A stretch of DNA of 64,000 nucleotides from a virus (IMGVR_UViG_2541047860_000002), one strand, 5' to 3'. Positions 3,864 to 32,303 are shown, numbered from the stretch's first letter. Program-made: numbers and translations. The notes: generated from the sequence alone by a model not told the origin.

Positions 3864-4763
3864 ATGAAGGACGGTGCAGTGAAGTTAAGGGTTTTAGGGA
3901 CCGCGCTCGCGGCTAAGATGGTAAGGTATGGAGTTAATGAAATGTTTTTTATAAAAAATGGAAAAAGATTTTCCTCAACAATACTAGCTACTGTTGTTGC
4001 TCTTTTTGTCCCCACACTCACCTTTGCTTATGATTTTAGCAAAATTGACTGCAATTCCCCTAAAACTAGGCAGATGTTAATCGATGATTATAATGAACTG
4101 CTGAAGGACGATCAGGAAGCAATTTCTGTAATCGATGCTTATAATCAGATCAATGAGATAAGAGAAAAAAATAAGCTCCAATGCCTGGGAACGTATGAAT
4201 TCTCAGATGGAAGTGCGCTTAGGGTTAGATATAAGTTATATTTAAATAGCCTCGGCACCCCCATATATGAATTTGCTCCAGTTGAGGAGTTAACGCAAGA
4301 TGACGTAAGCGCATCTATCCAAAATATCCCTGCAACCACAGCGAGTAAGGCTGGAGGGAATGAAGAAACGTACTCCTGTAAAGTGGCTGTAACCTACAAT
4401 GGAAAGCGCTCTAACTATATGGGGGATACTGGAGTCTGGGATCGTGTGATTACTGACTATGGCACTTATTTCTCATGGGATTTGCCGCGCGGAAATCGAG
4501 GCAATAGTACAGGCCAGGATGCTTTTAGTGGCATGGACGAATCAAAGCCAGCATTAGAAAATAAGCTGGTGAGAAAGGAAGTCGAAAAAGATGGTAGCGT
4601 GGTTGATGAATTTAGGACTGATGTAAGTTATGGGGAAAAACAACCAGTTCATAAGTTTGTATATGCTCGTAGAATAAAACCTACAGGCATGAGAGAGTAT
4701 TATGTTACGGATTTAACAGACAAGCGGGCGTTTATGTTTCTGAATTGTCAGAGAGATTCGTGA
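3864..4763 (+). CDS. Hypothetical secreted/periplasmic protein (signal-peptide-like FSSTILATVVALFVPTLTFA; probable start ATG 3939)
   Basis: N-terminal hydrophobic h-region followed by A-Y; AT-rich. Confidence 0.5.
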   Translation: MKDGAVKLRVLGTALAAKMVRYGVNEMFFIKNGKRFSSTILATVVALFVPTLTFAYDFSKIDCNSPKTRQMLIDDYNELLKDDQEAISVIDAYNQINEIREKNKLQCLGTYEFSDGSALRVRYKLYLNSLGTPIYEFAPVEELTQDDVSASIQNIPATTASKAGGNEETYSCKVAVTYNGKRSNYMGDTGVWDRVITDYGTYFSWDLPRGNRGNSTGQDAFSGMDESKPALENKLVRKEVEKDGSVVDEFRTDVSYGEKQPVHKFVYARRIKPTGMREYYVTDLTDKRAFMFLNCQRDS

Positions 4764-27389: not shown

Positions 27390-27782
27390 CTACCAGCGAG
27401 ACAAACGAACAACATGTTTCACTTTTGCGATCCACTTTCCGCGATAACTATTGATTACGGCCTGTGCCAGCTTCAAATTGGCTTCAAAATCAGCCTTACT
27501 ACCATCAGACTCCACCAGCATTCCTCCATCTATTTCTGGTAAACATAGATAATCCTGCTCAACCTGCAGCGGCATTGATGGCTCTCTGAATGGCGTTACT
27601 TGCTCTGCTTTCCAGCGAAATCTAACCCTCATCCCCCTGGTGGTCATTACTAGATAGCCTGTTATAGTGCTTTTATGGCCCACATCAGTACGCGTGGCAT
27701 TGCATGACACGATCTTACAGTTAGCGATAGACCACTCCATATTGGTGGCCTGTTGAGTGCTTAATTTGGTAGTCCCGTACAT
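27390..27782 (-). CDS. Hypothetical protein
   Basis: 130-aa ORF. Confidence 0.4.
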   Translation of the reverse strand: MYGTTKLSTQQATNMEWSIANCKIVSCNATRTDVGHKSTITGYLVMTTRGMRVRFRWKAEQVTPFREPSMPLQVEQDYLCLPEIDGGMLVESDGSKADFEANLKLAQAVINSYRGKWIAKVKHVVRLSRW

Positions 27783-28357
27783 CAGAAAGCCTCCCAGTCA
27801 GTCGCGATAATATCCACACCAGTTGCAAACCAGTCTGTCTGCGCCTGTAAATCCCCATTCATCATTACCAGGCGAGGCATCACCATCACATCGCACCCTT
27901 CCACAATATCGAATGCCTCTTCCGGCAAGAATTCGAAGAGCTTTTCTTTGCTGCCAATGCTGCCACGGAACATCGATATATAGCTCCCTTTAGGCCATGA
28001 TGTCCGCCGGGCATCAAGCCCTTTCATCATCCAGTAAAAAGCCGAGGAAAAAGGGATATTCTTTTTGCCAATGATTACATTATTCGCTTCTGTGTACTTC
28101 AGGAACTTAACTAACCTTACCATTGACTCGGATAACGCAACGTATGGCTCATGATTGATTGCTGACACGCTTACACCGTGCAATCCAACGCTTACCACTG
28201 TCATATCGCCGCTCTGTGCGGTTTCGATATTGACGCCTTTGCGAACTAATGAGGCGTAAAGTTCCTCTCGCTTTTGGGTCCAGCGTTCCCGCTTCCCTAT
28301 GAAGTCACTCAAAATGAGATCTTCTTCTGCATATGCGTTATCGTTCGCCATTAACAT
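27782..28357 (-). CDS. Protein with C-terminal DUF2829-like module
   Basis: ...YWMMKGLDARRTSWPKGSYISMF...DWFATGVDIIATDWEAF. Confidence 0.45.
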   Translation of the reverse strand: MLMANDNAYAEEDLILSDFIGKRERWTQKREELYASLVRKGVNIETAQSGDMTVVSVGLHGVSVSAINHEPYVALSESMVRLVKFLKYTEANNVIIGKKNIPFSSAFYWMMKGLDARRTSWPKGSYISMFRGSIGSKEKLFEFLPEEAFDIVEGCDVMVMPRLVMMNGDLQAQTDWFATGVDIIATDWEAF

Positions 28358-28811
28358 AACGTCTCCTTTTTTACACGCGCGACTATCCCCCGGAAGTGCC
28401 GGTAGTGATGTCGTAAATTCGTATTAATTAAGGGGTACAGCCTGAGCGGCTATATGATGAATTGAAAGGAGTTGTGGCGGTGGTGCCTCCACCTGCCAGG
28501 TTAGCCACTCCTGGCGACGTCACTTATCAGAACGTAGTGAATAAAAATGGCTTCGTCACGAGCGCATAGCCGCAATTACCACAACGGAAACGGCGCTCAC
28601 GCTAATTAAACGCCTTTTCCTGTTGTGCGCCGTGCTCTTCCGGCTGTCACACCGAATCGCCAGGATGGTGAGTCCTCGGTCCGCCACTGTTATCGGGGCT
28701 TGCACATTCCGGCTACCTGGTCCGTTTGCCTGAGCAAGAGTCAAAGATACCCCTTTAACGTCACCAGACCGCTAACGACGCATGTGCCAGACGCCGTGTT
28801 ACAACCAAATA

Positions 28812-28887
28812 TGGTGGCCCCTACCGGACTTGAACCGGTGACCGTGCGATTATGAGTCGCCAGCTCTAACCACTGAGCTAAAGGGCC
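28812..28887 (-). tRNA. tRNA with CAU anticodon (Ile2/Met-type, close to E. coli ileX)
   Basis: GGCCCTTTAGCTCAGTGGTTAGAGC...CTCATAA...GGTTCAAGTCC...CCA cloverleaf folded by eye. Confidence 0.8.
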
Positions 28888-28896
28888 AGATTACTG

Positions 28897-29028
28897 TTAA
28901 TTCCGCTTACGCTTTTTGCCAGGACCGCGTAAGGCTTTTGCTGCTTGCTCGACCCCATATGCAACCACCAGCAGAAATAAAAATGTCCACCAAGGGTTCT
29001 TGTCGGCAAACGTCCAAAATTCCATCAT
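28897..29028 (-). CDS. Small hydrophobic peptide (43 aa) between tRNA and plp
   Basis: MMEFWTFADKNPWWTFLFLLVVAYG... then basic tail. Confidence 0.2.
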   Translation of the reverse strand: MMEFWTFADKNPWWTFLFLLVVAYGVEQAAKALRGPGKKRKRN

Positions 29029-29041
29029 GTTATCTATTTGG

Positions 29042-29869
29042 TTATTTCACCGGAACAAACGGAACAGCGGTATTACTGGTCATATACTGCGGTAGCGTTC
29101 CGTTCCATTTGTTGATCGCTTCCAACTCCATAACGCCGGGGTTCTGGCGCAGAGCCTCACCGCGTAAACGAATGGCATCAGCTTCAGCCTGGGCTTTTGT
29201 GCGAATGGCATCGGCCTGTCCAGCAGCTTCTGCGCGCAGCATGTTGGCTTCTGCTTCGCGTTGCTTGACTTCCTGCTCGCGTTGCAGAGTTTTCTGGTTC
29301 GCCGTGACTTTGGCATTAATGCTGTCGATAACGGTTGGCGGGTACTCCGGCTTGCCCACATATGAGAGGCTCATTACCTGAATACCGATGGGCGTCATTT
29401 CTTCCTGAATGTCTTTAAGGGCTGCATCAAGCAATTCAGATTTGCCACCGTCGATAAATTTGTCGGTGGTCATTTTGCTGGCTAACCGGTTCAGAGCATC
29501 TGCAACCTTCTGGCGTAGATCGGTATCAGTAATATCATCTACACCTTTGCGATAGGTCTGAAATACCGTTGTGACTTTTGCTGGATCAACCTTGTAGGCT
29601 ACGCCGATGTGGTAACCAATGGTTGTTCCGTCGCTCATCTGGAAGCTGAACGGCTCATCGTATGTCTTCATTTGCTTAAAGGTCGGGAAGATATAAACTT
29701 CAGTATTCAAGCCTGTCCAGTAGCGACCAACGCCAACTACTTCACCGATACCTTTATCATCCCCCAGCTTATTTACTTTGATCCCTACGTTACCTGGCTC
29801 TACCCGATCGCATCCGGTCAGACATAAAGAACCAAAAATAATCGCTGCACTAATCAACGTTTTTTTCAT
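29042..29869 (-). CDS. plp: SPFH/band-7 domain lipoprotein (P1 Plp-like)
   Basis: Lipobox ...SLCLTGC; prohibitin-like core and coiled-coil tail; located inside tRNA cluster as in P1. Confidence 0.75.
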   Translation of the reverse strand: MKKTLISAAIIFGSLCLTGCDRVEPGNVGIKVNKLGDDKGIGEVVGVGRYWTGLNTEVYIFPTFKQMKTYDEPFSFQMSDGTTIGYHIGVAYKVDPAKVTTVFQTYRKGVDDITDTDLRQKVADALNRLASKMTTDKFIDGGKSELLDAALKDIQEEMTPIGIQVMSLSYVGKPEYPPTVIDSINAKVTANQKTLQREQEVKQREAEANMLRAEAAGQADAIRTKAQAEADAIRLRGEALRQNPGVMELEAINKWNGTLPQYMTSNTAVPFVPVK

Positions 29870-30086
29870 TAATCAATTTCCTGGTTTTTTCACGAAAAAA
29901 GACTACTGCAAAAGCCGGGTAAATGAGCGCGAGAAGGACTCCCAACAATACAAGTATTGTGCTGTCAGATGAGATCATATTTGGCAAAAGCCAAACATAC
30001 AGAACCAGTGACACAATCAAACAGAGGACGACATAAATATATAACCGCACCCATAGCGTTCGACATTTGTTCGGATTGTTCTGCAT
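29850..30086 (-). CDS. Small membrane protein upstream of plp
   Basis: 78-aa ORF with two hydrophobic helices. Confidence 0.45.
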   Translation of the reverse strand: MQNNPNKCRTLWVRLYIYVVLCLIVSLVLYVWLLPNMISSDSTILVLLGVLLALIYPAFAVVFFREKTRKLINEKNVD

Positions 30087-30349
30087 CCTCTCACTCCATT
30101 ATTTACCGAATAAAAAAGCTGCGGTGCCTGGTGCCTCCAGGTGACGTTAACCAGTTAACAATTAACGCCGGGATGTTTGACTTAACCACTAAGGAGGATT
30201 GTTTTAACTGTTCCGCGTGCGCTTAGCCGCATTCACCGCAATGGTAAGAGCACTTGGCTGGCTGGGCGGCGATGACGCCTGTACGCATTTGGTGATCCGG
30301 TTCTGCTTCCGGCATTCGCTTAATTAGCCAAATACTCTTAACGTTGCAC

Positions 30350-30436
30350 TGGCGGAGAGTAATGGAATCGAACCATCATCGCTTGCGCAATGGGACGGTT
30401 TTCAAGACCGCTTGAGCACCATGCTCCCTACTCTCC
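30350..30436 (-). tRNA. tRNA-Ser-like (UGA anticodon, long variable arm, atypical short D-loop)
   Basis: Perfect 7-bp acceptor stem, anticodon loop CTTGAAA, T-arm GATGG-TTCGATT-CCATT, CCA encoded. Confidence 0.55.
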
Positions 30437-30533
30437 AGTGATTGTGATGGTCGGTGCTGAACTCCGACACAGGGTTGTAGCAAGCCCCGCAAAGCGCGCA
30501 CTACTGTAGTTGCGGCACATCAGCCTGTGCATT

Positions 30534-30633
30534 CACCACAATGTTGAGAACACTGGTTGTCACGCTGCAACGCAACATTTATTCATAGATTGGGATATGA
30601 CCCCGTTACGCCAGTGTTCTCAACGTTGTGGTG
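30534..30633. repeat. 23-bp inverted repeat (CACCACAATGTTGAGAACACTGG / rc) with 54-nt loop; related copies at ~30233 and ~30765
   Basis: 22/23 match between 30534-30556 and rc of 30611-30633. Confidence 0.6.
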
Positions 30634-30838
30634 CCGGTTACGGTTCCGGCCAGGCCTCTTCCTCAACGGGGTGTTCTCCATACGGACTACCGTTTATTGG
30701 TCGTTCCTGCGGTTTATGTTGTGAAGCCAGATGCTTATCTTCTGGTTGCTTCAAAGAGCTGCACTTCATCACAACGGTAAGAGCACTCGATGCATTTAAG
30801 CCAAGCCCCATAAGGGAGAATGCCCTTACCTGTTGTGT

Positions 30839-30914
30839 TGGTGCCGGTTAACGGACTCGAACCGCTGACATCCTGCTTACAAGGCAGGCGCTCTACCAAC
30901 TGAGCTAAACCGGC
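30839..30914 (-). tRNA. tRNA-Thr (UGU)
   Basis: GCCGGTTTAGCTCAGTTGGTAGAGC...CTTGTAA...GGTTCGAGTCC...CCA. Confidence 0.85.
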
Positions 30915-30918
30915 AATT

Positions 30919-31005
30919 TGGTGGGGAGTGATGGAGTCGAACCACCCGAGTCGCAATGACAGTAGATTTACAGTCTACCCCGCTACCCCTACGGACTAAC
31001 TCCCC
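30919..31005 (-). tRNA. tRNA-Tyr (GUA), type II
   Basis: GGGGAGT acceptor, anticodon loop CTGTAAA, long variable arm, GGTTCGACTCC T-loop, CCA. Confidence 0.85.
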
Positions 31006-31010
31006 TAAAT

Positions 31011-31087
31011 TGGCGATGGTGGGTGGATTCGAACCACCGACCGACAGCTTAGAAGGCTGCTGCTCTATCCTACTGAGCTACACCATC
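31011..31087 (-). tRNA. tRNA-Arg (UCU)
   Basis: GATGGTG acceptor, GCTCAGTAGGATAGAGC D-arm, anticodon loop CTTCTAA, GGTTCGAATCC, CCA. Confidence 0.8.
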
Positions 31088-31590
31088 ACTTGCCGGGTAC
31101 GTCTCCGGCGAGGGCTTCCACCTCCGTATGCTTTTCGGCGCACCGCGCCCTGGCTGCAATTCGGTAACAGGGGATGCACAACCCTGGCTTCCAGCGTGAT
31201 TAGCGCCTTCAGCATGACGGGATATACCCGTAGTAGGATGTTATCCCAGAAAGCCATTAATCAATGGCTGTTACGCGGGAGGGACGTAACAGGTAAGGGC
31301 GCTGACCAGAAAGACCTGACCCTTCTCATTCATCTGGTTAATCACACCAGCGCCCTTGCCTGTTATGCCTCCCCGTTCCCTAATACACAGACGGGGACAC
31401 TCTGCGGTCGATTTTTTGACGGGGGACGACTCATACCCCGTGGCGTCTGGCTTCTTAGGCCGCTACCATCATCAGATCATCGTTTGCATTTACTTTAATG
31501 GTCGGTTTCTAAACCGCCGCAAAGTCGCTAACCATGACGAAAACCCTAAAAAAGCCCACCCGAAGATGGGCAAATACGCTACATCTCACA

Positions 31591-31669
31591 CAAGAAAGAA
31601 GCCGACTGCCTGAGCTGGATTCACTTTCAAATGCCCGCAGAAAGGGATCACAAGTCGGCTTCTTTCTTG
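31591..31669. repeat. Perfect 17-bp inverted repeat (CAAGAAAGAAGCCGACT ... AGTCGGCTTCTTTCTTG), 45-nt spacer
   Basis: Direct reading of 31591-31607 and 31653-31669. Confidence 0.7.
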
Positions 31670-32303
31670 ATGCGGCACTCTCTCCGCCCGTCACCGCTCT
31701 GTCTCGGTTGTCGCGTTTGCCACGCCAGCCGTAACGAGGTTTAAAGTCTTTACACGTTTCCATCACTCGACTGCCGTCTGTGGCTGTTCGTTGCAGCGGG
31801 GGTGCCTCCCCCTGGGGATATCCCCGGCCTTACCCCATTCTTTCAAGACACAATGCAAGGCCACATCCGCATAGGTGCATTACCGCAACATTAAGGAGAC
31901 TCAGGGCAAAAGGTAACCGCCACAAAAATCCCTATGCCTCCTTAATGTTGAAGATGTGCATTGATGATTAGATGCAGCATGTACCGTTACTCTCTGCCGG
32001 ACCATCATCAATGAACACCTTAAAAAGACCTTCCGTGGCTCAACATGTATTGTCGTTTACTCCGCAAAGTGCTCTCTCTGAAACCACTTTCCGCACTAAA
32101 CCTGCTGAACTTTGGCCTGCACGGTGCCAAAGCGTGCTCTTGCATTACCATCCTTTTCTAACACTTTAATTTGTTAAATGCTGGTGGGCGAACAATAACC
32201 AATAAGTGACTATCAAGCCCAGCAAGCGAAACGTGGGTACTGCCCACCAGCAAGGAAAATTCTATGTTAAGTTATCTCCACAATCAATACATTCGAATTG
32301 TGA

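Follow-up and report, generated by a model that had tools for sequence, protein, structure and literature searches.

Six homologous long hairpins in the tRNA-bearing operon leader of a P1/D6-like phage-plasmid belong to a conserved helix family and are candidate RNase III processing sites

The stretch of viral DNA analysed here, called the window throughout, is 64,000 nucleotides long (IMGVR_UViG_2541047860_000002) and, judged by its similarity to known genomes, is a P1/D6-like phage-plasmid. The region of interest matches E. coli phage-plasmids of ~75-96 kb with 100% identity, and with phages D6 and P7 the identity is 92-93%. According to the annotation of P1 and P7, the corresponding stretch lies within the ban operon, which is under the control of the C1 repressor and has the order Pban/Op72, tRNA-Asn, tRNA-Thr, tciABC, tRNA-Ile and ban. 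In the window ARAGORN identified five tRNAs, all on the minus strand: tRNA-Arg (UCU; 31011-31087), tRNA-Tyr (GUA; 30919-31005) and tRNA-Thr (UGU; 30839-30914), which were found by Rfam as well, tRNA-Ser (UGA; 30350-30436) and a tRNA with the anticodon CAU (28812-28887), termed Met by ARAGORN and Ile by RefSeq (PGAP), the homologue of which is tRNA-Ile2 in the P1 record. With the hairpins described below numbered H0 to H5, the order along the minus strand is H5, H4, tRNA-Arg/Tyr/Thr, H3, H2, tRNA-Ser and H1, then a small membrane ORF, an SPFH-domain gene, the CAU tRNA, H0 and a Tad2 anti-Thoeris gene. The leader is long (1.5 kb) and untranslated. The small membrane ORF (29850-30086, minus), the SPFH-domain gene (29042-29869) and the gene of the Tad2 anti-Thoeris family (27782-28357, minus) belong to the same operon, thus the array of tRNAs and hairpins may belong to an island with anti-defence or early functions.

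The set of tRNAs at this locus differs among related phages. When loci L001, L002, L007, L008, L009 and L010 were compared with the window, the sets were Asn-Thr in P1 and SJ46, Asn-Thr-Ser in D6 and P7, Asn-Tyr-Thr in Ro157, Asn-Tyr-Thr-Ser in CMS-2020a and Arg-Tyr-Thr-Ser in the window (30350-31087). Two P1 genes, upl and plp (L002 4067-4636), are annotated antisense across the hairpin-rich spacer, the equivalent of which is 30437-30838 on the plus strand of the window, and plp overlaps tRNA-Thr; RefSeq PGAP called no CDS at this position in an identical plasmid, and upl and plp of P1 are probably not genes. Within the leader there are also a terminator-like hairpin with a U-tract (31554-31571, minus) and a perfect 17-bp inverted repeat (31591-31669), situated where P1 annotates a 'dicF-like region'; the Rfam DicF model gave no match at 31554-31669 with E-values up to 5.

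An earlier note on this DNA described a repeated element inside the tRNA cluster, two copies of which were said to form a 23-bp stem. This stem is indeed present: CACCACAATGTTGAGAACACTGG (30534-30556) and CCAGTGTTCTCAACGTTGTGGTG (30611-30633) constitute a 23-nt inverted repeat, 96% complementary, with a gap of 54 nt. The degenerate motif CAYCRCAAYGKTRAGARCACT was found four times in the whole window, on the plus strand at 30234, 30534 and 30767 and on the minus strand at 30613, while the expectation from 100 dinucleotide-preserving shuffles was 0.00. The related copies that had been placed at ~30233 and ~30765 do exist, but they are not solitary, since each has a partner arm, at 30330-30353 and 30817-30838, respectively. 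The coordinates were also correct, though incomplete, as further homologous hairpins lie outside them at 28577-28627, 31278-31374 and 31886-31950. It follows from the partner arms and the additional hairpins that there are six long hairpins rather than one, and these homologous structures span 28577-31950 in the operon leader.

All six are given here on the minus strand. H0 (28577-28627) has a short loop and is located ~185 nt downstream of the CAU tRNA. H1 (30233-30353) consists of a 5' arm (30330-30353) that begins at the CCA end of tRNA-Ser (0 nt), a loop of 73 nt and a 3' arm (30233-30256). H2 (30534-30633), the hairpin of the first note, has a structured 54-nt loop and, in the minus-strand RNA, a single A·C mismatch in its 23-bp stem; tRNA-Ser follows 98 nt downstream in the direction of transcription. 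H3 (30765-30838) has its 5' arm (30817-30838) 1 nt past the CCA end of tRNA-Thr (30839) and its 3' arm at 30767-30787, which is the copy formerly noted at ~30765; together with its loop it is 92.6% identical to a sequence of the N15-like Klebsiella phage MK54. Thus two of the six follow a tRNA CCA at a distance of 0-1 nt. H4 (31278-31374), upstream of tRNA-Arg, has a stem of the family type (CAUAACAGGCAAGGGCGCUGG / UCAGCGCCCUUACCUGUUACG) lengthened by GGGAGG/CCUCCC, and H5 (31886-31950) is a diverged member (CAACAUUAAGGAGGCAUAGGG / CCCUGAGUCUCCUUAAUGUUG). Stems of all six are 19-24 bp long and are interrupted by isolated bulges and mismatches only, with loops of 11-73 nt, the shortest being that of H0 (11 nt). 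The repeated element thus makes up one strand of a long and conserved RNA helix of ~20 bp, the consensus of which is 5'-CACAAC(A)GGUAAGAGCAUUG ... CAGUGCUCUUWCCGUUGUG-3', usually followed by GGUGAAU; this 3' flank is found after H1 and H2, and close variants of it after H0 and H3. Directly 3' of H3 lies a module (30712-30764, minus; GCAGCUCUUUGAAGCAACCAGAAGAUAAGCAUCUGGCUUCACAAC) common to Sashavirus, SSU5-like Klebsiella phage-plasmids and the N-gene leader of P22-like phages.

It had been proposed that the element is derived from a tRNA, its core resembling a D-arm, or that it acts as an attenuator. Both ideas, that of fragments or pseudo-tRNAs and that of intrinsic attenuators, are scarcely credible in view of the following. 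The D-arm likeness of GGTAAGAGC is superficial and the motif is antisense to transcription: all five tRNAs are on the minus strand and the plus-strand motif is thus complementary to the RNA, so that the GGTAAGAGCAC core resides on the non-transcribed strand, where neither ARAGORN nor the Rfam tRNA model called anything. The scan for tRNAs and pseudo-tRNAs that the earlier note had suggested returned the five ARAGORN tRNAs, none of them at the arms, and no Rfam tRNA at the arms with E-values up to 1; at a relaxed threshold ARAGORN added only a reverse-strand '???' call adjoining tRNA-Ser. The same helix is also found in many phages without a nearby tRNA, as only 42 of 124 listed units have one. 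A sequence 5' of H2, CGUAACCGGCAC, resembles the 3' end of tRNA-Thr, yet it belongs to a small hairpin (GCCGG...CCGGC) seen before family hairpins also where the phage has no tRNAs, and is more likely to be this small hairpin, common before family members, than a tRNA-Thr remnant. As for attenuation, the stems are followed by GGUGAAU and not by a U-tract, and the loops, of 11-73 nt in the window, reach 172 nt elsewhere among the matches listed. A terminator scan gave no minus-strand call at H1-H5, and the calls inside H0 (minus) and H3 (plus) correspond to helix tops without a convincing U-tract.

The pairing of the arms is well conserved. An IMG/VR scan with a pattern for the 3' arm alone gave at least 120 stretches, and a complementary arm was present upstream in 124 of the 127 matches listed, a figure that is independent of any selection for complementarity. 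An anchor-only scan (CACAAC...GTTGTG plus complementarity) of 1.14 Mb of loci found 172 hairpins compared with 4 in reversed sequences. In an alignment of 20 diverse stems that included H1, H2 and H4 (A3), 96.4% of cells are paired, and in that of 27 stems of the commonest class (A2) 96.9% are, both percentages being inflated because part of the sample was ascertained by complementarity. Both sides changed in 12 of the 19 pairs of A3, a value reached in 0 of 500 shuffles, and in 7 pairs of A2; slid registers of A3 gave a pairing of only 33-53%. Variants in which the helix is kept include GAGAAC/GUUCUC, GAGGCC/GGCCUC, AUGCUC/GAGCAU and AAACGGC/GCCGUUU.

Compensatory changes would be expected also of an inverted repeat maintained as DNA, and it is only an asymmetry of G·U pairs that speaks for RNA in particular. 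Such pairs are one-sided in the family: of the 27 stems of A2, 20 have U·G at column pair 18-30. Across the unique hairpins of the family, the strand with the GUGAA flank, which in the window is the tRNA strand, gives the more stable stem in 61 of 66, with a mean difference of -5.8 kcal/mol. Within the window the minus strand folds better in five of six hairpins, at -28.9 kcal/mol against -21.1 for the plus strand in H0, -49.3 against -47.7 in H1, -49.7 against -48.9 in H2, -34.9 against -25.6 in H3 and -32.2 against -26.3 in H5. Minus-strand z-scores of the six range from -3.1 to -6.4 (H1, -3.4; H2, -6.4; H5, -4.7). H4 is the exception, more stable on the opposite strand (-51.2 kcal/mol on the minus and -58.4 on the plus strand), which speaks against the reading as RNA processing sites. 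The strand bias of G·U pairs as a whole argues for a function at the RNA level and against a DNA palindrome. Together with the minus orientation of tRNAs and flanking genes and the ban-operon annotation of P1 and P7, this asymmetry assigns the predicted transcription of the region to the minus strand.

The opposite view, that the inverted repeats are recombination joints or a MITE-like mobile palindrome by which tRNA and sRNA cassettes are shuffled between phages, the RNA hairpin being a by-product, should be considered here. Blocks of homology between the window and P1, P7, D6, Ro157, SJ46, CMS-2020a, pJN2-26, MK54, Sasha and phiNP start or stop at arms (30252/30257, 30609-30611, 30632/30633, 30640, 30787/30788 and 30833/30838), the tRNA sets of P1-like phages vary, and the same hairpin occurs in unrelated types of phage. 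The breakpoints are nevertheless partly automatic where conserved arms flank divergent loops, and the strong G·U bias towards one strand is not predicted for a DNA palindrome. A MITE was rejected, as the internal sequences are unrelated between copies, without the shared interior of a MITE family, and no target-site duplications were seen in the flanks inspected by eye. A primarily DNA-level element is decidedly improbable. Recombination at the arms is compatible with a function in RNA and is better seen as its consequence; as a secondary point, the arms probably also act as joints for homologous recombination, because their sequences hardly differ from one cassette, or one phage, to the next. 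Such recombination would be a simple mechanism to explain why P1-like phage-plasmids carry different sets of tRNAs.

A function for the helix is suggested by its homologues in lambda and in the Qin prophage. In lambda a canonical member with the stem CACAACAGGTAAGAGCATTG / CAGTGCTCTTTCCGTTGTG is located directly 3' of tR', the terminator of 6S RNA, in the Q-S late leader (L135 3002-3083), that is, directly after a stable RNA element as in the window, although this element is a terminator and not a tRNA and the operon is late and not early. The Q-dependent late transcript of lambda reportedly contains RNase III processing sites, described by Daniels et al. in 1988, and the hairpin may correspond to them. 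A later article (PMC7547250) cites Daniels et al. 1988 on RNase III processing sites in this transcript.

The Qin member (L183 4173-4258; NC_000913.3 1649172-1649257) consists of 7 bp, a 1-nt bulge, 2 bp, a 1x1 mismatch and 10 bp, which is exactly the topology of the lambda hairpin. RNase III processing upstream of DicF in the dicBF operon of Qin is said to have been described by Faubladier et al. in 1990. A DicF species of 190 nt requires RNase III, and its 5' end is an RNase III cut (bioRxiv 10.1101/2023.04.14.536235). As this species shares its 3' end with DicF (L183 4435), the 5' end should be near 4246, inside the 3' arm of the Qin hairpin (4239-4258); the position ~4246 is derived from the length of the RNA (190 nt, probably accurate to within a few nt) and is not a published coordinate. 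Papers on the RNase III targetome gave no coordinates for dicF. Qin resembles the window in its homologous stem sequence, in the topology of the helix and in the setting, an untranslated stretch in a repressor-controlled early operon of a temperate phage; moreover, the Qin spacer between dicF and dicB is homologous to 30120-30240, the domain 3' of H1. It differs in that its hairpin precedes an sRNA (DicF) instead of following a tRNA, in that there is one copy and not six, and in a loop of unrelated sequence.

The helices, then, are real; their conservation includes compensatory changes, they show a preference for the transcribed strand and they have homologues in the hairpins of lambda and Qin. 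Most likely they are RNase III processing stem-loops which separate tRNAs, sRNA-like modules and mRNA, and we put the probability of this reading at roughly 60%. Among the roles offered for the element by the earlier note, processing signals are the one that gains support, from stems of 19-24 bp, covariation, location on the transcribed strand and homologues at or near reported sites in Qin and lambda. RNase III substrates are mostly Watson-Crick dsRNA of about two helical turns (at least ~20 bp), a length that the stems have, and the helix lies on what is predicted to be the transcribed strand of a longer precursor. Cutting by RNase III in this phage, and the effect of the cut, are by analogy the most likely course of events. 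Each hairpin would fold as the polycistronic precursor is made and would be cut by host RNase III on both strands near mid-stem, and the cuts would separate the tRNAs, the STnc100-like RNA domains and the downstream mRNA of a ban-type operon. For tRNA-Thr and tRNA-Ser, cutting would leave a short 3' trailer to be trimmed by exonucleases, which gives a testable account of 3'-end formation for tRNAs within a phage mRNA operon. The conservation of the stem goes far beyond the known needs of RNase III and suggests recent spread or a further constraint on the sequence itself.

The products of such processing may include the domains next to some of the hairpins. Directly 3' of H1 is a multi-branch STnc100-like domain (30120-30240, minus), one of three paralogous domains on the minus strand, the others being at ~28470-28590 and ~31795-31900, that each come after a family hairpin (H1, H0 and H5) and are homologous to the Qin dicF-dicB spacer (L183 4457-4580). 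Each has a 5-bp stem with an AGGCA pentaloop, the stem covarying as CCUGG/CCAGG, GGUGG/CCACC and GGGGG/CCCCC. The closing helix of the 30120-30240 domain (UUGCGGUG...CACCGCA) re-uses the last bases of the 3' arm of H1. These bases (GUUGYGGU) could close the next RNA domain in all three cases, so cleavage could trigger refolding: the cut would free the 3' half-arm to close the domain that follows. The flanks of H1, H0 and H5 share a GGUGAAU start and a CCNGG-AGGCA-CCNGG hairpin with the prophage sRNAs STnc100 / PasD (RF02076). True STnc100 RNAs of Stx phages have no family hairpin upstream, and the likeness concerns the flank, not the repeated element. The 30120-30240 domain was rejected as a member of STnc100, since its RF02076 score of 39.4 bits (model positions 31-147 of 206) is under the Rfam gathering score of 47; genuine members score 179-208 bits.

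Long helices in a polycistronic precursor are familiar from rRNA operons and from the early mRNA of T7, where RNase III cuts release stable RNAs or split cistrons. There is no sequence relationship between those stems and the ones in the window, and the rrn helix encloses its product, while most of the products in the window would be outside the helix, unless the loops themselves are the product (see below). Correia elements of Neisseria and the ERIC and REP palindromes of enterobacteria are, likewise, dispersed imperfect palindromes transcribed into hairpins, and Correia elements are RNase III substrates. They are, however, repeats of the chromosome whose copies have their interior in common, and Correia elements also have target duplications, whereas the family described here is phage-restricted and has unrelated loops. 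Of the known kind of element to which it belongs, the set in the window is the first array linked to tRNAs.

The distribution of the family is wide, extending over more than 100 viral contigs and prophages of Enterobacterales. One hundred unique units among the matches listed have an almost invariant stem (5' CACAACAGGTAAGAGCATTG ... CAGTGCTCTTTCCGTTGTG, then GGTGAAT) around unrelated loops of 31-172 nt. Only 13 of the 124 units listed abut the 3' end of a tRNA, and the 42 units with a tRNA noted above have it on the same strand within 1 kb; others among the matches listed are placed directly after a terminator U-tract or a small hairpin. Parts of the spacer between tRNA-Ser and tRNA-Thr have matches in unannotated intergenic DNA of several unrelated phage groups, namely Sashavirus, P22-like phages (N-gene leader), N15-like phages (MK54, PY54), SSU5-like Klebsiella phage-plasmids and phiNP. 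Judged by these matches, the hairpin family is specific neither to P1 nor to tRNAs. In a set with one genome per species, matches with a partner arm were almost all from Enterobacterales, plus four oddly labelled MAGs; ~25 matches had no detected partner arm, ~22 of them in other phyla, compared with ~17 estimated by chance. No Rfam 15 family matched the hairpins when the region was scanned at permissive E-values; that scan gave only tRNAs, the sub-threshold STnc100 hit and miRNA-precursor matches which are spurious and due to the hairpin shape. Full-text literature searches with the stem sequence returned no match. The family is broader than its record in Rfam and in the full-text searches run. 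The end of the Qin DicF precursor, the late leader of lambda and an unannotated stretch of P1-like phages are thus brought into one sequence family that is absent from Rfam.

One may ask if the loops have a role of their own. It was considered that the stem, which is conserved, serves as a handle and that the loop, which varies, is a small RNA freed by a double RNase III cut, in analogy to the excision of pre-16S rRNA from rrn precursors, the loops being diversifying small phage RNAs, some of which mimic T-arms. Consistent with this, hypervariable loops (31-172 nt among the matches listed) are set between near-identical stems, and alleles of loops are conserved across unrelated phages, that of H3 being found in the window, in MK54 and in several IMG/VR contexts. 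Hairpins resembling T-arms (G53-UUCRANY-C61 with a stem of 4-5 bp) occur in 11 of the 100 unique loops among the matches listed, compared with 0.125 in shuffles, and at a low threshold ARAGORN detected a weak tRNA-Tyr-like structure in the H3 loops of D6, P1 and SJ46. The T-arm fragments could, on the other hand, be debris of recombination with neighbouring tRNA genes, and some loops are very short, such as the 11 nt of H0. The H1 loop (30261-30325) is 98% identical to a lambda late-leader segment (L135 3081-3145) that lies 3' of the lambda hairpin and so outside it; the same module is therefore found in or out of a loop, and seems to work in both places. We regard this scaffold as unlikely. 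Its broader form, in which the 20-bp helix would be a universal RNase III excision handle of temperate enterobacterial phages that frees the loop as a stable RNA, is slightly more doubtful still. Were it true, the loops (~11% with T-arm mimics among the matches listed) would be a fast-exchanging repertoire of small RNAs, whether decoys, sponges or tRNA mimics, and recombination at the invariant arms would shuffle them between phages as an RNA-level analogue of a cassette array. Should the loops prove to be excised, the small phage RNAs of this family would amount to a large pool that is so far unexplored.

The T-arm-like hairpins of the loops (GGUUCGAnUCC type) are situated directly after the 5' arm or directly before the 3' arm, in the loops of L019, L020, L030, L043, L069, L076, L085, L091 and L126 and in L001 4683-4789.

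The sequence of the 3' arm raises the question of antitermination. The canonical arm contains UGCUCUUU, the core of the rrn boxA, and in H1 and H3 it contains UGCUCUUAC, close to the boxA of lambda nutR. Such a string might recruit NusB/NusE, or the structures might simply shield 1.5 kb of untranslated RNA from Rho and thereby allow expression of the genes downstream; the leader, being long and untranslated, would fit this view. Yet the string is buried in a very stable helix, and in variants it is replaced by GUUCUCA, GGCCUCA, GAGCAUG or GCCGUUU with compensation in the other arm, hence selection preserves the pairing and not the boxA sequence. Antitermination of either form is very unlikely, and a single-stranded conserved boxA of the GCUCUUUA type was rejected, as it is present in canonical arms but paired, and replaced with compensation. 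Two other candidates were dropped. The P1 C1 operator (ATTGCTCTAATAAATTT, up to 3 mismatches) had no match near the hairpins, and its partial likeness to the 3' arm was discounted; an integron attC-like site was discarded because the arm ends, inspected by eye, do not fit RYYYAAC/GTTRRRY.

A covariance model built from the stem only (R1) found in the window just the short-loop H0 (34.1 bits, E 1.8e-7) and an unrelated terminator at 73-110; the model penalises long loops too heavily and is thus of no use for defining the family. The terminator at 73-110 is bidirectional and intrinsic (AAAGCCCACUUGCUAAGUGGGCUUU), scores 21-22 bits with the stem model and is not related to the family. Most lambdoid members (e.g., L034, L047 and L080 3930-3966) have a small conserved hairpin on the 3' side (GCGCAGGCUGAUGCGC) and a small hairpin with a purine-rich loop on the 5' side (GCUCCACGAAACGGAGC, CCUCGGAAGAGACGAGG), which suggests a fixed three-hairpin architecture in these phages. 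A further conserved non-coding module (GGCGUCUGGCACAUGCG...GUAGCCGGAAUGUGCAAGCC...CUCACCAUCCUGGCGA) at 28635-28717 precedes family hairpins, and does so as well at 3580-3657 of L080, an unrelated viral contig whose non-coding operon ends in a DicF-like sRNA.
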